Origin: a virus
Lineage: Duplodnaviria > Heunggongvirae > Uroviricota > Caudoviricetes
Length of the DNA stretch: 8,943 nucleotides
Strand: one strand, 5' to 3'
Virus record (IMG/VR): IMGVR_UViG_2563366853_000003
Span: 1-8,943 of that record
Positions 1 to 8,943 of this stretch are shown here, piece after piece. Both the position numbers and the translations under genes were made by a program. The notes under the pieces are model-generated. The model was given only the letters and a program-made list of their open reading frames with translations. It had not been told where the DNA came from and ran no database searches. Every line of letters starts with the position of its first letter. Within the stretch, counting starts at the first letter, position 1.

Positions 1-456
1 CGTGCGCTGCTGTTAAGCCGCAAGAATCCGTTTGGCGATATCAAATCGGATGGCACCGTGAAAACGGCTCTCGAAAACCTTGGTTTGGGAGAAGCGGCAA
101 AACGGGATGTGGGTAACGGGCAAAACCAAATTCCTGATATGTCAGCGTGGGAGTGTGGGGGAGATACAACGACGGGATGGAGACGAAGCCCGGATGGTTA
201 TATTGAACAATGGGGGCTAACTGAGGCCACAACAAATGAAGTTTTGATTAATTTTCCTATCCCATTTCCGACAGCCGTCATTTCTATTAATGAACATGAC
301 CAGGCTCCTGTGGCAGGGAAAATGTCAGTATGGCAATTCTATAAATTGACTAACTCAAATGTCATAGCAGAGAACCTGGGATCTCTTGATAAAGGAAATC
401 CATCCTTCAATGTTCCAACTGTCGCTGGTTGCCGCTGGTTTGCTACAGGAAGATAA
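1..456 (+). CDS. phage tail fiber protein, C-terminal part (5' end lies outside the window); variable host-range portion after the crossover site
   Basis: Frame 1 is open from base 1 to TAA at 454-456. Translation ...KNPFGDIKSDGTVKTALENLGLGE... resembles the constant/variable junction of Mu S / P1 S / e14 Stf type tail fibers. The crossover site at 68-93 lies in frame (GLGE). Confidence 0.8.
   Translation, partial: RALLLSRKNPFGDIKSDGTVKTALENLGLGEAAKRDVGNGQNQIPDMSAWECGGDTTTGWRRSPDGYIEQWGLTEATTNEVLINFPIPFPTAVISINEHDQAPVAGKMSVWQFYKLTNSNVIAENLGSLDKGNPSFNVPTVAGCRWFATGR
68..93. other. left crossover site for the DNA invertase (gix/hix/pix-like 26-bp imperfect palindrome)
   Basis: CTCTCGAAAACC-TT-GGTTTGGGAGAA. 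The inner half GGTTTGGGAGAA is the exact reverse complement of TTCTCCCAAACC at 1940-1951. The A-rich ...AAAACC TT GGTTT... core is as in Hin/Gin sites. Confidence 0.6.
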
Positions 457-457
457 A

Positions 458-898
458 ATGAGTAAATATCTTTACGATGCAAAAACTAATATGTTTTACC
501 CATTTACTCTGGAAAGTCAGTATAAGGAGTCTGGGTTATGGCCTCATAATGGAGTTGAAGTTGATGAGGATATATTTATTAAGTACCTGTCCCCACCTCC
601 AGGGAAGGTGAGAGTTGCGGGTGATGATGGCTATCCTGCATGGGATGACGTACCGCCGCTAACTCATGAAGAACAACTGTCAGAAGCGGAACGAAAAAAA
701 CAGGCACTCATAAATCGAGTTAATGAATATATTAACAGTAAGCAGTGGCCAGGAAAGGCTGCTATTGGTCGTCTGAAAGGTGAGGAGCTGGCGCAATATA
801 ATTCATGGCTTGATTATCTGGACGCACTGGAAATGGTTGATATTTCCAGTGCTCCAGATATTGAATGGCCTACGCCTCCGGCAGTTCAGGCCAGATGA
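458..898 (+). CDS. tail fiber assembly protein (Tfa chaperone), active-orientation copy
   Basis: ATG at 458, 1 nt after the tail-fiber stop, with SD GGAAG at 448-452. Product MSKYLYDAKTNMFYPF... ends with the conserved Tfa C-terminus (...APDIEWPTPP...). The longer ORF from 386 overlaps the tail-fiber gene and is not the start. Confidence 0.8.
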   Translation: MSKYLYDAKTNMFYPFTLESQYKESGLWPHNGVEVDEDIFIKYLSPPPGKVRVAGDDGYPAWDDVPPLTHEEQLSEAERKKQALINRVNEYINSKQWPGKAAIGRLKGEELAQYNSWLDYLDALEMVDISSAPDIEWPTPPAVQAR

Positions 899-1472
899 CG
901 TCCGGCGCGGTGCTGGTATCTGTTGCCGTCACCGCGTCAATGTAATCCAGCACAGCGTTAAGTCTGGTTGTTTCTGCCTGCGTCGGTTTACGTCCGGCCT
1001 GCAATTTCAGTTGAATCAGACTGATGGAAGCCATTGCTGCATCAATCAGTGACTGGCGCTGTGCTTCTGCCGCTTCTACTGCGGCACCGTGTTGTGCCTC
1101 AGTATCTGTCACCCATTTTTCACCATCCCATTTATCGTATGGCGTTAACGGGGCGATAGTGGTTGTATTTTCGGGATAGTCGCCTAGTGCTGTGATTTCT
1201 TTGGCATCTCCCGTTTCGGTGTTATAGACGATTTCACCGCGATGGTCTGACACATATTCCCATGATTTTAAATCCACAGAACGGCAAATTGTATAACCAG
1301 CCTTAGATGTACCAGGAGCGTCTAAACAGGAATATGCTGGAATACCGACACCCACTGCAAGATATTCAGTTGATGCAGAAATATATTCCCGCGTCTCACC
1401 ATCATAGTTATAGACGGTAATATTCCCCGCCTTCGTGGTAATAAGCTCGCTATTTAATACGGCGTTATCCAT
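870..1472 (-). CDS. tail fiber assembly protein, alternate copy (Tfa') in the invertible segment
   Basis: 200-aa ORF MDNAVLNSELITTKAGN... with the Tfa-like C-terminus ...APDVIWPELPEA. Its 3' end overlaps the + strand tfa 3' end by 29 bp (870-898). Start overlaps the upstream stop (TAATG) and has a GAGGG SD. Confidence 0.8.
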   Translation of the reverse strand: MDNAVLNSELITTKAGNITVYNYDGETREYISASTEYLAVGVGIPAYSCLDAPGTSKAGYTICRSVDLKSWEYVSDHRGEIVYNTETGDAKEITALGDYPENTTTIAPLTPYDKWDGEKWVTDTEAQHGAAVEAAEAQRQSLIDAAMASISLIQLKLQAGRKPTQAETTRLNAVLDYIDAVTATDTSTAPDVIWPELPEA

Positions 1473-1953
1473 TATGCAGCCCTCACGATATAGTTAAATG
1501 CAATATTTCGTGGACGGGTTTCACTCCCGCCAGTATTACCGATACTCCCTCGTGAATGAAGTGTCGGTGATGGGATCAGACTTCCTCCGGCAGCGGCAGC
1601 ATCAAGCCCCCTGCCTTGCGTATATGCTCTTCTGAAGATTGTCGCCAGTTCCCATTCCTCTTTTGAGTCATACCCATCGTTGGCGACAACAGGATGACGG
1701 TGCTTTTCCAGCATTCCGGCCTGAATACTCAATAAAACACGTCCTGCATCAATACCGCGCCCGTCATCCCAGCCACGAATAAACTCACCGCGTAAATCAG
1801 GTAATTTATTTGTTGGATAAGCCTTTGCCAGTTCCGGGTATTCTTCAGCAGAAAATGCCGCACCGTTGCATTTCAGCCAGCCTGTTGGCGGTGTGGCTGA
1901 AGGCCATGGAACAGGCACACCAACAGGTAATGCAGAGCCTTCTCCCAAACCAA
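1472..1953 (-). CDS. alternative tail-fiber C-terminal variable segment (no start codon of its own; would be fused to the constant part after inversion)
   Basis: Open frame on - runs from the right crossover site (codons GLGE encoded by 1940-1951, in frame) to the stop at 1472-1474. Sequence ...GSALPVGVPVPWPSATPPTGWLKCNGAAFSAEEYPELAKAY... is typical of a tail-fiber receptor-binding tip. The ORF-track start MMPFAC is read-through into the site. Confidence 0.65.
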
Positions 1954-1965
1954 CGTTTATGAAAA
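1940..1965. other. right crossover site for the DNA invertase
   Basis: TTCTCCCAAACC-AA-CGTTTATGAAAA, inverted relative to the site at 68-93 and sharing a perfect 12-bp half. Confidence 0.6.
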
Positions 1966-2019
1966 TGAAGAAATAACAAGCAAATGGCATCATTCCTGCT
2001 TTTACCAGGGGGAATTAAC

Positions 2020-2574
2020 ATGCTTATTGGCTATGTACGTGTATCAACAAATGACCAGAATACCGATCTACAACGTAATGCGCTGAACTGTGCAGGATGT
2101 GAGCTGATTTTTGAAGACAAGATAAGCGGTACAAAGTCCGACAGACCAGGACTGAAAAAGCTGCTCAGGACATTATCGGCAGGTGACACGCTGGTGGTCT
2201 GGAAACTGGACCGACTGGGGCGCAGTATGCGGCATCTTGTCGTGCTGGTGGAGGAGTTGCGCGAACGAGGCATCAACTTTCGTAGTCTGACGGATTCAAT
2301 TGATACCAGTACCCCAATGGGGCGCTTTTTCTTTCATGTGATGGGTGCCCTGGCTGAAATGGAGCGTGAACTGATTGTTGAACGAACAAAAGCTGGACTG
2401 GAAGCTGCTCGCGCACAGGGACGAATTGGTGGACGTCGCCCCAAACTTACACCAGAACAATGGGAGCAGGCCGGACGATTAATTGCAGCAGGAATTCCTC
2501 GCCAGAAGGTAGCGATCATCTATGATGTTGGTGTATCGACACTGTATAAGATGTTTCCGGTCGGAGATAAATGA
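2020..2574 (+). CDS. serine DNA invertase, Pin/Gin/Cin/Hin family
   Basis: ATG at 2020 with SD GGGGGAA at 2008-2014. Product MLIGYVRVSTNDQNTDLQRNAL...GDTLVVWKLDRLGRSM...GINFRSLTDSIDT...MGRFFFHVMGALAEMERELI...GRIGGRRPKL... matches the resolvase/invertase catalytic domain (active-site Ser in YVRVST) and C-terminal HTH. The ORF-track start at 1984 is upstream of the SD-linked ATG. Confidence 0.9.
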   Translation: MLIGYVRVSTNDQNTDLQRNALNCAGCELIFEDKISGTKSDRPGLKKLLRTLSAGDTLVVWKLDRLGRSMRHLVVLVEELRERGINFRSLTDSIDTSTPMGRFFFHVMGALAEMERELIVERTKAGLEAARAQGRIGGRRPKLTPEQWEQAGRLIAAGIPRQKVAIIYDVGVSTLYKMFPVGDK

Positions 2575-2632: not shown

Positions 2633-3502
<870 letters not shown>

Positions 3503-3794: not shown

Positions 3795-3813
3795 AGGCCC
3801 TAGAAAAGGGCCT
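3795..3813 (-). terminator. putative Rho-independent terminator (- strand)
   Basis: Perfect 7-bp stem AGGCCCT / AGGGCCT with a 5-nt loop, followed on the - strand by TTTATTA. Sits 15 bp downstream of the small ORF stop. Confidence 0.5.
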
Positions 3814-3827
3814 AAGATTAGCAAAGA

Positions 3828-3971
3828 TTATCCTCGATACTTAGAGGCAGGAATTTTGATAGGAAAGGCTGCCAAGCCTTTTTGACGAGCAAAGATCCGT
3901 TTACCTTTGACCGTAATAAAAGGACGGTAAATTGTGATGTATTCCTCAGATACAGCTTTTTCAATGGTCAT
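3828..3971 (-). CDS. small hypothetical protein (47 aa)
   Basis: ATG at 3971 to TAA at 3828-3830: MTIEKAVSEEYITIYRPFITVKGKRIFARQKGLAAFPIKIPASKYRG. Followed by the hairpin terminator. Below the ORF-track size cutoff; SD is weak (AGGT). Confidence 0.35.
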   Translation of the reverse strand: MTIEKAVSEEYITIYRPFITVKGKRIFARQKGLAAFPIKIPASKYRG

Positions 3972-3997
3972 ATCGTGTTACCTGTAAAGTTTCGCTG

Positions 3998-4025
3998 TTG
4001 ACAAAACCTAAGGTAAGCGTATACT
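3998..4025 (+). promoter_or_regulatory. sigma70-type promoter (-35 TTGACA, 16-bp spacer, -10 TATACT)
   Basis: Consensus -35 at 3998-4003 and near-consensus -10 at 4020-4025. No protein-coding ORF with a start follows; a terminator lies about 45 bp downstream. Confidence 0.5.
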
Positions 4026-4031
4026 CACAAC

Positions 4032-4094
4032 CGCCAAGTTTTTCGTATTTGCTTACGATAGGAGAAGCCAGCGACAGCGGTTCGCTGGCTTTTT
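4032..4094 (+). ncRNA. candidate small RNA (about 60-65 nt) between promoter and terminator, convergent with the ImmA-like gene 3' end
   Basis: Delimited by the 3998-4025 promoter and the 4067-4094 intrinsic terminator. No start codon in the interval. Confidence 0.3.
4067..4094 (+). terminator. Rho-independent terminator (+ strand)
   Basis: Stem GCCAGCGA / TCGCTGGC (8 bp) with a 7-nt loop, followed by TTTTT. Ends 2 bp before the ImmA-like stop codon on the opposite strand. Confidence 0.55.
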
Positions 4095-4096
4095 CG

Positions 4097-4630
4097 TTAT
4101 CTTTTTGCATTTTTTCTCATCCAAGTTTCAGCCGCTTGTTGACTGACACCAAATGTTTTGCTTATATCTTCAACAGTCATTGTGGGCAAAACTAGTCTTG
4201 AGTCAATTAAGAAGTGGCTTGCAAAAACATCTGCTTGCCATTCGCTGTCTTCATAGATTTTATGCCCTCCACTAGTCTTATTACGTGCATAGATACTTTG
4301 ATTGCGATGCATGACTAAATGACCAAGTTCATGCGCAACAGTGAATCTCGCATGGTTCTCACCATTGCACACTGCATCGTAAACAGATCGCTGTAAAACA
4401 ATTTTGTTCTTATCTGGATAAGTCACTGCATAGCGTTTGGGCAGTTCATGATCTTCAACAATTTCTAGCTCAATGCTTTCTGAGGCCATAAGACCTTCTA
4501 GTAATACATCCAGTCTCAGATATGTGTGATTTGATATCTGAAGAACGTCTCTCAGACGATGAGCGTATGATTTAATCATGCTGGTGCTGAGAGGTGAAAC
4601 GCGATGGCCAAGTTCTCGTTTCGCAATCAT
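4097..4630 (-). CDS. ImmA/IrrE-family Zn-metallopeptidase (HEXXH; COG2856-like)
   Basis: 177 aa with the HEXXH motif (HELGHLVMH) and downstream ...SEWQADVFASHFL.... Its ATG sits 3 nt after the stop of the upstream XRE gene, so the two are likely cotranscribed. Confidence 0.8.
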   Translation of the reverse strand: MIAKRELGHRVSPLSTSMIKSYAHRLRDVLQISNHTYLRLDVLLEGLMASESIELEIVEDHELPKRYAVTYPDKNKIVLQRSVYDAVCNGENHARFTVAHELGHLVMHRNQSIYARNKTSGGHKIYEDSEWQADVFASHFLIDSRLVLPTMTVEDISKTFGVSQQAAETWMRKNAKR

Positions 4631-4633
4631 TAT

Positions 4634-4984
4634 TCAGTCCTTTAACATTTTATTAAGCTTATCGAGTTGCTCTGGACTCAGGTCCTTAAATTTACGAGCA
4701 AAAACAAGCATTAGTTCTTTGTTCTGCTCATTTGCATCCGACATATCAACCTTAATGGACGGTTGAGAAATCTCTGCCTGTTTCTTGAGATTGATGATGT
4801 CTTGTCCGCTAAGCTCAAAAGTTGTTGCAATCGTATTTACTAATGAGTCCGGTATAGCTCTTTTGCCTAATTCAATGGCGGATAAGTAAGCCGAACTAAC
4901 GCCTAACAGATCAGCCATATTTTTGAGCACCATACCCCGGTCTATTCTCATTTTTCTGAGAGTCTTACCAAAGCTAGTTACCAT
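4634..4984 (-). CDS. XRE-family helix-turn-helix transcriptional regulator
   Basis: Start ATG at 4984 preceded by a perfect SD AGGAGG with a 6-nt spacer. HTH_XRE signature LRKMRIDRGMVLKNMADLLGVSSAYLSAIELGKR. The ORF-track start at 5011 is a GTG upstream of the SD. Confidence 0.8.
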   Translation of the reverse strand: MVTSFGKTLRKMRIDRGMVLKNMADLLGVSSAYLSAIELGKRAIPDSLVNTIATTFELSGQDIINLKKQAEISQPSIKVDMSDANEQNKELMLVFARKFKDLSPEQLDKLNKMLKD

Positions 4985-5010
4985 GTTGCGCCTCCTACAA
5001 TCCATGCTCA

Positions 5011-5039
5011 CTTATACTAAAAACCAAACTCAAGATCAA
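5011..5039 (-). promoter_or_regulatory. putative sigma70 promoter for the XRE/ImmA operon (-35 TTGATC, 17-bp spacer, -10 TATAAG)
   Basis: Hexamers read on the - strand, placed about 20-30 nt upstream of the XRE SD. Confidence 0.4.
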
Positions 5040-5266: not shown

Positions 5267-5294
5267 GTGACAACATGTTTATAGGATGTATAAT
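5267..5294 (+). promoter_or_regulatory. putative sigma70 promoter for the Bro-N gene (-35 GTGACA, 16-bp spacer, -10 TATAAT)
   Basis: Perfect -10 hexamer at 5289-5294, followed by SD AGGAGG at 5305-5310 and GTG start at 5318. Confidence 0.5.
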
Positions 5295-5317: not shown

Positions 5318-6079
5318 GTGCAAAAGAATTTGTTACAATTATGCTACGAAGGAGAGTGTGGAGAAAATTATATCCGTAGCATGAATGAAAAAGGGCAGAT
5401 TTTTGTTTCACTTTCAGATGTGCTAAGAACGCTTTCTGCTGAGAACAGAAAACTGGATGGAAAGACTTCTCAAAGCTTGCTCACTGTAATAAGAGCGGTA
5501 ATAAAAACTTTAGATCCAGATGAGTTTAGGAATGTTTCTCTTGTCGTGGATGGTGAAACTATCTCTGAGGTATTTCTTACTGAACCAGGTCTATATAGAG
5601 TACTTGCTCAGGATACTACTGCTGCGGGGAAAAAATTCCAACGCTGGCTTTTTCATCAGGTCCTTCCGTCTATTCGTGAATTTGGTGTATATCCTCCGCC
5701 ACCTAAGCAAGAACGTTCAGAACTGAGTGCTTTTGCTAACAGTCTGCAGCAGACGGTTCAAGCATTGGTAATGGAAATAGAAAAACGTGAAGAGTTAGAA
5801 AGTAGAGTAAACCAAGTTGAACTAAAAGTTAACTCGTTAGAAAGTTTAAGAGATTTGTCTCAGTTCAGAAGTGTTCCTCAACGATTGATGGAGTTAGGTT
5901 TGGATACCTATTCGGTTGAGGAGCTTTGGCAATGGTGTGAAAAATTGCGTAGTGAACGTGGAGCAGAAAGAATTAAGTGCCCCTCCGGATTGAATATAAA
6001 TTCTTGCTATCCATTAGCTTTGGTTGATGAAGCTATCGCTATATACCAGAAAGTAGTTGAGGCAAGAACACGTCAGTGA
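5318..6079 (+). CDS. Bro-N domain protein (phage antirepressor-like) with a predicted coiled-coil C-terminal region
   Basis: GTG start 7 nt after SD AGGAGG. The N-terminal half (...IFVSLSDVLRTL...GLYRVLAQDTTAAGKKFQRWLFHQVLPSIREFGVY) matches the Bro-N signature; the C-terminal half is heptad-like (EIEKREELESRVNQVELKVNSLESL). Confidence 0.75.
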   Translation: MQKNLLQLCYEGECGENYIRSMNEKGQIFVSLSDVLRTLSAENRKLDGKTSQSLLTVIRAVIKTLDPDEFRNVSLVVDGETISEVFLTEPGLYRVLAQDTTAAGKKFQRWLFHQVLPSIREFGVYPPPPKQERSELSAFANSLQQTVQALVMEIEKREELESRVNQVELKVNSLESLRDLSQFRSVPQRLMELGLDTYSVEELWQWCEKLRSERGAERIKCPSGLNINSCYPLALVDEAIAIYQKVVEARTRQ

Positions 6080-6088
6080 GCTTGAGGG

Positions 6089-6118
6089 AAAAAAAAGCCC
6101 GCATAAGCGGGCTTTTTT
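6089..6118 (+). terminator. strong Rho-independent terminator (bidirectional shape)
   Basis: AAAAAAAA-GCCCGC-ATAA-GCGGGC-TTTTTT, starting 10 bp after the Bro-N stop. Confidence 0.8.
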
Positions 6119-6243
6119 ATCACTCGGGAGCTGCGGCTCCTTTGCGTATCCTTTTTTGTCTCCTCACCGTCTGGTCGGTGTCCTGCTGAGACTGCTAACA
6201 TCCTGTTTTTGTTGGTGTTGTCCTTACACCGTCCAATCATGAT

Positions 6244-6271
6244 TGGTGGAGCTGGCGGGAGTTGAACCCGC
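6244..6271 (-). other. ssrA (tmRNA) 3'-end fragment, att-site-like scar
   Basis: Reverse complement reads GCGGGTTCAACTCCCGCCAGCTCCACCA (T-arm, acceptor 3' strand, CCA), which I recall as the terminal 28 nt of enterobacterial tmRNA. No upstream tmRNA body is present. Confidence 0.55.
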
Positions 6272-6345: not shown

Positions 6346-6764
6346 TCTATTATAGATTTTACCGTATTTCGGCATGAATGAAACTGAATATCCTCCCACC
6401 GACCCTCCATGACTTTACACCACTGTCTCTGGGGCTGCTATGTGCCAAAAGCGGACATAACGACACGTTAGTTAGAAATCTCAAGACCAATTAGGTTGGA
6501 TACTTACATGTATACTATTGCCTAACGATACTACCCTATCAACCTCATGGTTTATAGGCGGGGGTGAGAGCCAATCGAACGCTATCGTACGTTTTTATGC
6601 TGTCTACCCTAGACCCCAAGTAGACATGAATCTTACCTGATTTCCATACGAGGGCGACGTTGATCATCCAGCTTTAGTGCGAGCACTGAACTTAACATTT
6701 ACCAGCAATAGTGATATTTTCTACAAAGAAAAATATATGGAATAACGTCATCGCGGGTACAAAA

Positions 6765-7757
6765 ATGACTATAAAAAAAACATATGTAACACCAACAGAA
6801 ATAGTGAAATATTTTTATGACAAACCGGAAAACGATAACGTAAAAGAGAGAAAAACAATTGAGAGCCTGACCCGTCTCAAACCTGAGTGGGAAAATACTC
6901 TCGATATGATGAAGTTAATACGCAATTGTGAAAAGCTAGCAACTGAAGGTATTTTAATGGAATTGTCTTCAGGACATACTCTTTTTGACCGTTGCTATTT
7001 CGCACCGAATTTCAATGAATCAGATGCGAAATATGGAAAGTATGATTTTATAGCTGATGGATTTGAGTCAATCATAGACCGCCTTAGTCCTTCCGTTTTA
7101 CCTGTTGTTGTTGAAAAAAGTGATGGTTCACATGATCTTGGTACTAGTTTTATTGTTGGGAATAACCACACGATATTTACAGCCAGACATGTTATTGAAG
7201 ACATGAAGAGTATCAGGATACTTAGAGCTGGTGGTGAGGCTTTACCAATACATAAAATCTTTGTATCTAACGATGAACGTATTGATATCGCTTTAGTTTT
7301 CACAACCATTCCGAATGAAGATAATATTCAACCACTTAAGGTCTCAACCAAAGCCTCGGTACTGGATGAAATTTTATCAATAGGATTTCCACCCATTCCA
7401 GGATTTGATGCATTAAAGTTATATGACGTTTCGCATATAAATTCGTTTGTCCGACTGTCAAAGGGGCGAATTGTTGGTTCTGGTCACTCTTACTTAGATT
7501 CACAAGACTTTTTATTATTCAATGCTAGGGTTAAGGGGGGGAATAGCGGTGGCCCTATAATTAACAAATACGGCCTTGTTGTTGGTATGCTTGTACAAAT
7601 ACCAATATCATCTGAGGACAGTTCAAAGATTGATAACCTTGGATATGGTATAGCTGTAACAGGAAAAAGCCTGCTGGATGCCATTACATTTACAGAAAAT
7701 GGCCGCGAATTAACACTCACCGACCGAGGAAATGGAGAATATTCAACTCTAGCATAA
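6765..7757 (+). CDS. trypsin-like (chymotrypsin-fold) serine protease with N-terminal domain of unknown function; no signal peptide
   Basis: Catalytic triad in order: His in FTARHVIED, Asp in DIALV, Ser in GGNSGGPI. The first ~115 aa have no recognisable motif and no hydrophobic leader. Start is uncertain: ATG 6765 chosen, GTG 6711 is the alternative; both have a weak SD. Confidence 0.7.
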   Translation: MTIKKTYVTPTEIVKYFYDKPENDNVKERKTIESLTRLKPEWENTLDMMKLIRNCEKLATEGILMELSSGHTLFDRCYFAPNFNESDAKYGKYDFIADGFESIIDRLSPSVLPVVVEKSDGSHDLGTSFIVGNNHTIFTARHVIEDMKSIRILRAGGEALPIHKIFVSNDERIDIALVFTTIPNEDNIQPLKVSTKASVLDEILSIGFPPIPGFDALKLYDVSHINSFVRLSKGRIVGSGHSYLDSQDFLLFNARVKGGNSGGPIINKYGLVVGMLVQIPISSEDSSKIDNLGYGIAVTGKSLLDAITFTENGRELTLTDRGNGEYSTLA

Positions 7758-8604: not shown

Positions 8605-8943
8605 GTGAAACTCAATGCCCGTCAAATAGACACTGCCAAGCCAAAAGAGAAGGCTTACAAGTTGGCTGATGGTGGTGGTCTGTACCTCCTGGTAAAACCT
8701 GGTGGAGGAGAATATTGGCGTCTCAAGTATCGTGTAGCTGGTAAAGAGAAGCTGTTAGCACTAGGTGTGTATCCTGAGGTCACCTTAGCTGATGCTCCTG
8801 CAAAACTTGAAGAAGCTAAAAGAGGTATCTCTGGGGGAATCGATCTGATGGAAGTGAAGCGAGAGGAAAAGATTGCCCGGGAAACGCAGTTAAACAACAC
8901 CTTCAAAGATATTGCCCTTGAGTGGCACAGTAACAAATTATAA
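8605..8943 (+). CDS. P4-type tyrosine integrase, N-terminal arm-binding domain only (112 aa; likely truncated or pseudogene)
   Basis: MKLNARQIDTAKPKEKAYKLADGGGLYLLVKPGGGEYWRLKYRVAGKEKLLALGVYPEVTLADA... is the characteristic N-terminus of P4-like integrases. In-frame TAA at 8941-8943 cuts the protein before the catalytic domain. The gene lies immediately downstream of the tRNA fragment. Confidence 0.75.
   Translation: MKLNARQIDTAKPKEKAYKLADGGGLYLLVKPGGGEYWRLKYRVAGKEKLLALGVYPEVTLADAPAKLEEAKRGISGGIDLMEVKREEKIARETQLNNTFKDIALEWHSNKL

Follow-up and report, generated by a model that had tools for sequence, protein, structure and literature searches.

The 8,943-nucleotide (nt) stretch of viral DNA analyzed here (IMG/VR virus record IMGVR_UViG_2563366853_000003, Caudoviricetes; the whole stretch is referred to below as the window) forms the right arm of a lambdoid prophage, a relative of Escherichia phage LLS. 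On its minus strand lie the genes of an XRE-family repressor, of an ImmA-like M78 peptidase and of a basic protein of 47 amino acids (aa), and the space between the last two genes holds a promoter and a terminator that face the opposite way (Table 1). A first-pass annotation had described this unit, at positions 3998-4094, as a small RNA (sRNA) candidate convergent with the ImmA-like gene. Judged from sequence features, comparison of homologous loci and predicted folds, it is very probably a real sRNA gene with its own sigma-70 promoter and intrinsic terminator.

The promoter, TTGACA-16-TATACT, agrees with the consensus at 11 of 12 positions and ranks first among the 23 promoter-like sites of the window, and its hexamers are found where the first-pass annotation had placed them. 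The hairpin downstream has a perfect core, AAGCCAGCGA/TCGCTGGCTT, at 4065-4074/4082-4091, with the T5 tract at 4090-4094. The hairpin (4061-4095) scored as terminator-like for the plus strand alone, having no U tract on the minus strand. It lies 36-40 nt from the -10 box, a trivial departure from the gap of about 45 bp given previously, and the T5 tract ends 2 nt from the stop codon of the ImmA-like gene (4097-4099, minus strand), which upholds the earlier coordinates of a transcript of about 60 nt. Between the predicted start and the terminator there is no ATG and no GTG, as had been claimed, the sole start-like triplet being a TTG at 4049 without a Shine-Dalgarno sequence. The unit is indeed divergent from the open reading frame (ORF) of 47 aa, which is encoded on the minus strand.

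The 63-nt transcript has a predicted folding energy of -23.8 kcal/mol (z = -3.6), and none of 200 shuffled sequences was as stable; the minus-strand RNA of the same region also folds below its shuffles (z = -2.6). In dinucleotide-shuffled windows (n = 300), some 11/12 promoter was found in 18% of cases, and an 11/12 promoter followed by a perfect-stem terminator 20-160 nt downstream, in 0 of 300. Scanning with the Rfam 15 covariance models yielded no match at E <= 1 over 3990-4100, and at the gathering score nothing was found at the sRNA element in 20 related loci.

Table 1. Features of the sRNA locus and of the adjacent genes (positions in the window).
Feature	Position	Strand	Remarks
-35 hexamer TTGACA	3998..4003	+	sRNA promoter; invariant in 11/11 close variants
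-10 hexamer TATACT	4020..4025	+	16-nt spacer to the -35 hexamer; invariant among close variants
Predicted sRNA, about 60-65 nt	4030..4094	+	5' end at 4030-4033, inferred from the -10 box; 3' end within T5
5' unpaired motif ACCGCCAAG	4030..4038	+	invariant among close variants
Small stem-loop SL1 (UCGUA-UUUGCU-UACGA)	4043..4058	+	from the fold; weakly supported
Intrinsic terminator, 14-bp stem, 7-nt loop	4061..4095	+	from the scan and the fold
Terminator-like hairpin 3' of the 47-aa gene	3795..3813	-	likely end of the XRE-ImmA-47-aa transcript
Gene of the 47-aa basic protein	3828..3971	-	divergent from the sRNA promoter; candidate regulated gene
49-aa ORF, WP_001519526	3961..4110	-	PGAP/RefSeq coding sequence; spans the whole candidate RNA; judged not a gene
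ImmA/IrrE-type M78 metallopeptidase gene (CapP-like)	4097..4630	-	convergent with the sRNA; Pfam PF06114, 2.8e-11; PADLOC capP, 5e-15
XRE-family HTH repressor gene (CapH-like)	4634..5011	-	first gene of the operon; Pfam HTH_19, HTH_31, HTH_3; PADLOC capH, 6e-11
BRO-N gene	5318..6079	+	divergent from XRE; presumed regulated gene; SRAP in relatives

Twelve distinct versions of the locus were gathered from E. coli, IMG/VR contigs and Klebsiella-type contigs, and the identity figures given here come from the nine close lineages. In the promoter region (3994-4031) 3 of 38 alignment columns are variable, with a mean identity to the window of 98%, and in the transcript (4032-4094), 9 of 63, with a mean identity of 94%; the respective values are 59 of 141 and 72% for the 47-aa gene, 52 of 104 and 71% for the 3' end of ImmA, and 16 of 22 and 49% for the 22-nt spacer between the ATG and the -35 box. 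The conserved block starts about 4 nt before the -35 box and runs through the terminator. Phage LLS, compared with the window over 3828-4156, is 78% identical overall, this identity being spread very unevenly. From these alignments we conclude that the sRNA block is under selection at the nucleotide level. The earlier interpretation of the unit as a regulatory sRNA gains support from the same data, as the promoter and the terminator are nearly unchanged in the close lineages while their neighbors drift to about 70% identity. The first-pass annotation had also named homologous loci lacking either the promoter or the terminator as a possible refutation; the close lineages (E. coli prophages, phage LLS, Klebsiella-type contigs) keep both. 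In distant relatives the promoter is retained at the same place, with TTGACG or TTGATA at the -35 position and TAGACT, TACACT or TATAAT at the -10 position, and a terminator hairpin follows it in most of these loci.

This conservation is unlike that of a coding sequence. RefSeq places a 49-aa protein over the candidate RNA, overlapping both the ImmA stop and the start of the 47-aa gene, and several related contigs have an ORF of 50-53 aa called at the equivalent position, which would imply a product translationally coupled between ImmA and the 47-aa gene. We regard such a protein as very improbable. Through indels, of which that in the LLS group is a 1-nt deletion and others affect the L033 and L073 groups, the distal two-thirds of the ORF fall in three frames, premature stops occur in the frame of the LLS group, the nucleotide-level conservation has no codon (third-position) pattern, and no family match was found. 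As neither the frame nor the protein sequence is kept among homologues, we rejected this ORF as a real coding gene, and because the homologues read it in three different frames, the PGAP call is probably spurious, a mis-call over an RNA gene of the opposite strand. The features by which a bacterial sRNA gene is recognized, that is, a near-consensus promoter, a hairpin with a U tract on the same strand, and conservation higher than that of neighboring coding DNA with no frame kept, are all observed here.

Substitutions in the close variants also bear on the structure of the predicted RNA. One compensatory change, from G-C to A-U, is seen in the terminator stem of the Klebsiella-type group, and G.U pairs at alignment columns 38-70 and 40-68 (extended stem, GGAGAA versus UUUUUC) are possible on the plus strand only. 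The other substitutions fall mostly in loops, with a few breaking pairs of SL1 or of the terminator. In SL1 the close variants have substitutions in the loop, and since the stem is lost in the L033 group, this stem-loop is weakly supported. Other subfamilies offer better evidence. For a Firmicute-like one, RNAalifold applied in the sRNA orientation predicts two hairpins in which four pairs show compensatory changes and several G.U pairs never vary. Of 32 loci, 27 have a more stable predicted fold on the sRNA strand than on the reverse complement (mean -3.4 kcal/mol, Wilcoxon p = 1e-4), a difference to which the U tract adds and for which the 32 loci are not independent.

Changes in the divergent 47-aa gene are mostly synonymous and it is conserved as a protein; by this pattern it is clearly a real gene. 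Its product has an isoelectric point of 10.3 and a grand average of hydropathy of -0.13, and contains no hydrophobic or transmembrane segment, the maximum Kyte-Doolittle value over 15 residues being 0.70 versus more than 2.6 for Hok and TisB. The AlphaFold (AF2) model is small, beta-rich and soluble-looking (pLDDT 85.7). No match to the protein was found in Pfam, PHROG, NCBIfam or PADLOC, and a fold search gave no neighbor in PDB; the sole sequence match, which involves the DNA-binding wing of SlyA, is weak. A word-indexed search for the family returned five clusters, an exhaustive profile search, 75 representatives (E < 1e-3, at the 50% clustering level), and the profile of these, 1613 clusters. 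Family members are all 37-90 aa long, basic, and unnamed or labelled hypothetical, and share the core motif [VI]I[YF]RP[YFW]ITVKGKRIYAxQxGLKAF; a full-text literature search for the protein motif (ITVKGKRI and its variants) retrieved no papers. The hairpin after the 47-aa gene is found at the same position in homologues, with a different sequence.

A natural disruption of the unit is seen in E. coli LZSFT34 (L003), where an IS3-family element is located at the start codon of the 47-aa gene (equivalent of ~3966-3972) and parts this gene from the sRNA/ImmA side.

The sRNA had initially been associated with the XRE/ImmA operon. Comparison of loci throughout the protein family does not bear this out, and on this evidence the constant partner of the sRNA is the 47-aa gene, not ImmA. 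The cassette consisting of XRE, ImmA, the spacer and the small gene is found in lambdoid, Mu-like and other backbones, and in many further subfamilies an M78 peptidase gene is located immediately upstream, while a Halomonas locus (L029) retains the small gene and the promoter-terminator unit with neither XRE nor ImmA nearby. A sigma-70 promoter on the opposite strand (at least 9/12), with the -35 box at 10-50 nt from the start codon of the small gene, was identified in 19 of 32 subfamily representatives, compared to about 2 of 32 expected from shuffles (at most 6 in 200 sets) and to 7 on the sense strand. Most such loci have a GC hairpin with a T run 60-130 nt after this promoter, and in 14 of 20 loci the terminator ends from 27 nt inside the upstream gene to 16 nt short of its stop codon, this upstream gene often encoding an M78/ImmA-like peptidase.

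Short motifs recur in the RNAs of these loci. Near the RNA 5' end, CCGCCAAG or CTGCCAAGG is present in L034, L038, L056, L086 and the Halomonas locus; the window-type RNA carries CCGCCAAG, and other subfamilies have GCCAAGAG or CAAGAGGG further inside the RNA. The terminator stem GCCAGC/GCTGGC is common to the enterobacterial and Firmicute-like types. A scan of viral contigs with the 14-mer CAAGAGGGCCAGCC gave chance matches only.

Two subfamilies have peculiarities of their own. In the Firmicute-like one (L074, L075, L089, L090, L093), the M78 peptidase is replaced by an unrelated conserved protein of ~260 aa, with N-terminal REKSxxYPAxSIxxC and C-terminal LPVFLxNLK motifs and no Pfam match. 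In the other (L067, L126, L129, L134, L139), a hairpin located just before the Shine-Dalgarno sequence shows clear compensatory changes, its stems being GTCCTG/CAGGAC, GCTCTG/CAGAGC, CCCCTG/CAGGGG and ATCCTG/CAGGAT.

The possible action of the sRNA depends on how the opposite strand is transcribed. In the proteobacterial types, the interval from ImmA to the small gene contains no minus-strand promoter with a score of at least 8.5; within 3972-4130 of the window, inspection by eye gave only weak candidates for a promoter of the 47-aa gene, none of which reached this score. As there is neither a minus-strand terminator nor an internal minus-strand promoter, transcripts of the ImmA operon probably cross the sRNA gene, and such read-through would make them complementary to the whole sRNA. 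The first-pass annotation had allowed for an antisense role if the sRNA terminator was leaky; leakiness is unnecessary, since the hairpin does not resemble a terminator when read on the minus strand. The sRNA is complementary to the mRNA of the 47-aa gene if this mRNA starts upstream of 4094, and no sense terminator or promoter lies between. A start this far upstream is also suggested by L129 and L139, in which a strong sense promoter, TTGACG-16-TATAAT, precedes the small gene by 222 nt and is placed beyond the antisense-oriented hairpin. Most likely, the small-gene mRNA has a long leader that crosses the sRNA gene, and given such a leader the sRNA would be cis-antisense to it, here to the intercistronic region between ImmA and the 47-aa gene.

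Hence the reading that we favor, at about even chances, is that the sRNA is a cis-antisense RNA controlling the 47-aa gene via its long mRNA leader. What we infer for the transcription of the sRNA, the operon read-through, the outcome of pairing and the role of the protein is as follows. The XRE-ImmA operon transcript, unstopped at the hairpin, would run through the sRNA gene into the 47-aa gene, and abundant sRNA would pair with the intercistronic leader of this transcript. Pairing would then cause cleavage or decay, or block productive translation or elongation into the 47-aa gene, and convergent transcription may add interference. The mini-protein would be made only once transcription of the operon outruns the sRNA pool, e.g., after repressor cleavage. 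The third-gene slot of the operon would fit a toxin, because Xre-COG2856 operons often have a toxin, e.g., RelE or PIN, as the third gene (PMC2701414).

A number of observations weigh against this reading, or against the sRNA gene that it presupposes. The 5' end of the sRNA, on the upstream side of the 47-aa gene, stays about 60 nt short of its start codon and leaves the ribosome-binding site uncovered, which excludes simple occlusion, and the 47-aa protein, basic and soluble-looking, is unlike the classical type I toxins. Complementarity within a cis-antisense pair survives any mutation, and thus the near-invariance of 63 nt suggests an extra constraint on the sRNA, be it a target in trans, a partner protein or the structure of the leader itself. 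Covariation of the hairpin, proposed as a check in the first-pass annotation, is minimal in the window's own subfamily: one compensatory pair was found, and 42 of 500 shuffles reach the observed score. A covariance model of the window-type RNA (R1) finds the close family only, other subfamilies scoring at most 12 bits, and because of this the equivalence of their RNAs rests on position and architecture. In a metagenome contig (OBYJ01002157.1, L069), a 17-nt deletion (~4011-4027 equivalent) removes the -10 box, and XRE, ImmA and the small gene are intact; therefore the sRNA is not obviously indispensable, and L069 may indicate that its promoter is dispensable, or may be a defective or assembly variant. 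Moreover, the L067/L126/L129/L134/L139 subfamily has no recognizable antisense promoter. Finally, in the L098-L103 type, sense promoter-like hexamers are positioned back-to-back with the antisense promoter, which implies divergent transcripts that do not overlap.

The invariance of the whole RNA exceeds what pairing in cis requires, and would be accounted for if the sRNA acted through the mini-protein, the basic protein binding the RNA and being sequestered by it, as by a type III antitoxin or a CsrB-type sponge, or forming with it a functional RNA-protein particle. That the RNA accompanies the protein gene in very different hosts, whether ImmA is present or not, agrees with such binding, as do the strongly basic character of the protein and the motif GCCAAG(A)G or CAAGAGGG, which recurs at varying RNA positions, as protein-binding motifs do. 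Still, this motif is partly base-paired in some subfamilies, the fold search had no match and the sequence match to the SlyA wing is weak and concerns DNA binding, and the divergent gene order is unlike that of known type III systems; we consider this explanation unlikely. Ultra-conservation of the whole RNA would also suit a trans-acting sRNA, with the 5' ACCGCCAAG serving as the seed on host or phage mRNAs and the proximity of the small gene reflecting only shared regulation. The single-stranded 5' motif is the most widely conserved part of the RNA, and the order of a 5' seed, a small hairpin and a Rho-independent terminator is typical of enterobacterial trans-sRNAs. However, no site complementary to the seed was found elsewhere in the window, and the one candidate site in the XRE mRNA, which the first-pass annotation had suggested as a place to look for targets, is not conserved: the 16-nt similarity of 4043-4058 to 4831-4846 is not kept in ten homologues and for this reason is taken as a chance match, and pairing of the sRNA with the XRE mRNA was rejected. 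As the RNA sequences of other subfamilies differ while the protein gene is retained, a local partner is indicated, and a trans-acting function likewise seems unlikely to us.

It is less probable still that function resides in the sense-strand RNA, as a structured cis-regulatory 5' untranslated region that leads into the 47-aa gene, with the antisense promoter being secondary or lineage-specific. This would explain L129 and L139, where the strong sense promoter yields a leader of ~216 nt and no antisense promoter is recognizable, as well as the compensatory changes just upstream of the Shine-Dalgarno sequence in their subfamily and the stability of the window's minus-strand RNA relative to shuffles. 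On the other hand, the hairpins have U tracts behind them in the antisense orientation alone, the G.U pairs favor the antisense strand, and the near-consensus antisense promoters occur in the majority of the representatives. An even lower probability is assigned to the absence of any RNA gene, in which case the hairpin would end or stabilize the ImmA message, the hexamers would be a protein-binding or recombination site, and the conservation would result from mosaic exchange. Lambdoid phages are known to conserve sequences at the borders between modules, and the cassette is indeed present in many different backbones. Against that, the conserved block extends from the vicinity of the -35 box through the terminator, the hairpin has no U tract for the strand of ImmA, and distant subfamilies show this promoter-terminator arrangement again in unrelated sequences, a recurrence that recombination cannot explain.

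Cis-antisense control of the 47-aa gene, the reading favored above, also has parallels among known systems, and the element would work most like a type I toxin-antitoxin (TA) locus or an antisense RNA of the sar/OOP type. In common with type I TA systems (hok/sok, ldr/rdl; the divergent tisB/istR-1 and zorO/orzO), it combines the gene of a protein shorter than 60 aa with a cis-encoded RNA of 60-120 nt, the RNA has its own strong promoter and a Rho-independent terminator and would be complementary to a long leader rather than to the coding region, and the pair is carried by prophages and other mobile elements. It differs from them in that the 47-aa protein is basic, beta-rich and without a hydrophobic helix, and so lacks the mark of a membrane toxin; in that it forms the tail of the XRE-ImmA operon, not a free-standing locus; and in that one natural variant (L069) has lost the RNA promoter and keeps the gene. 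P22 sar (arc-ant) and lambda OOP (cII) are RNAs of ~70 nt transcribed from constitutive promoters in the opposite direction within or next to a phage regulatory operon; they end at a terminator near the upstream gene and limit expression of the neighboring regulator gene. The window sRNA is likewise a short opposite-direction RNA at a phage regulatory operon. It covers the intercistronic leader only, whereas sar covers the ribosome-binding site of ant, and OOP, the 3' end of cII, and neither RNA has a sequence or Rfam relationship with it.

The operon itself resembles the switches composed of XRE and COG2856/M78 proteins (ImmR/ImmA, DdrO/IrrE, CapH/CapP), with adjacent genes for an HTH repressor and an M78 peptidase that match capH and capP, a divergent output gene (BRO-N, or SRAP in relatives) and a third gene downstream in the operon. 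In contrast to the predicted three-component Xre-COG2856-toxin systems, the third gene here represents a new family, and the RNA-protein pair is also seen in loci with neither XRE nor ImmA. The adjacent XRE-HTH and M78 genes with a divergent operon upstream reproduce the CapH/CapP (ImmR/ImmA-type) layout, in which the regulated operon is on the opposite strand (10.1101/2022.04.27.489752). Neither an RNA gene nor this mini-protein is mentioned in the CapH/CapP paper (10.1101/2022.04.27.489752) or in the 2009 TA survey (PMC2701414). A second 11/12 promoter, GTGACA-16-TATAAT, is located at 5267-5294 (+), 24 nt before BRO-N in the XRE/BRO-N divergent region, and is likely the target of the XRE repressor.

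Among 5426 complete E. coli genomes, 34 carry the locus, without exception on the chromosome, and no DNA match to it was found in a plasmid collection. Elsewhere in the prophage, a Pin/Fin-type serine invertase gene at 1984-2574 (+) lies next to alternative ends of tail-fibre and tail-fibre-assembly genes at 58-898 (+) and 870-1993 (-); together they make up an invertible segment for host range, in line with the annotation of phage LLS. The cargo slot that follows the invertase is occupied by the gene of a LEM-3-like GIY-YIG protein, 2633-3457 (-), which matches the single-gene defence system PD-T4-3 (PADLOC E = 2.7e-140; phrog_5356); the corresponding slot in e14 carries mcrA. A strong hairpin at 6089-6125, between A and T runs, is terminator-like in both directions and has weak Rfam matches to leaders and sRNAs. 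Next to this hairpin, the end of the prophage is marked by a 17-nt match to the tmRNA 3' end at 6255-6271 (-), an att site in ssrA, and the attP of phage LLS is in ssrA at the corresponding place (PMC12315714); the paper on this phage makes no mention of the sRNA element (PMC12315714). Outside the prophage, at 6711-7757 (+), there is a gene for an S1/trypsin-like peptidase (phrog_18002, E = 9e-234) whose protease domain resembles the models of a retron reverse transcriptase-protease, Lamassu LmuA and Hachiman HamA, and which is possibly a stand-alone defence gene. Farther on, 8605-8943 (+) encodes a P4-type integrase in its N-terminal part, for which the annotation of strain A22 has a truncated pseudogene, with the MarR-vat island beyond.

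Beyond this prophage, we tentatively suggest that the sRNA and the basic protein of ~45 residues constitute an unrecognized, widespread two-gene RNA-protein module, in most cases attached to an M78 peptidase gene at its 3' end, and possibly an RNA-gated effector or feedback element of DNA-damage switches. Going by the loci compared, the contexts of such a module would span proteobacterial-type as well as low-GC, Firmicute-like phages and mobile elements, with more than 1600 protein clusters. It could, for example, modulate the peptidase, or consist of a non-membrane toxin and its RNA antitoxin. For annotation, the lesson is that RefSeq has a 49-aa protein where the evidence favors an RNA gene on the opposite strand. 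The sRNA element is of interest because it is ultra-conserved, is tied to a large unannotated family and is attached to widely studied stress switches: pairs of the XRE/ImmA type control prophage induction, transfer of integrative and conjugative elements, the radiation response of Deinococcus and many anti-phage operons. If the suggestion is true, a conserved RNA gene and a mini-protein at the end of the operon would be an unrecognized layer on these repressor-protease switches, and a family of more than 1600 clusters, missed by annotation pipelines or called hypothetical, would receive a name and a testable function.

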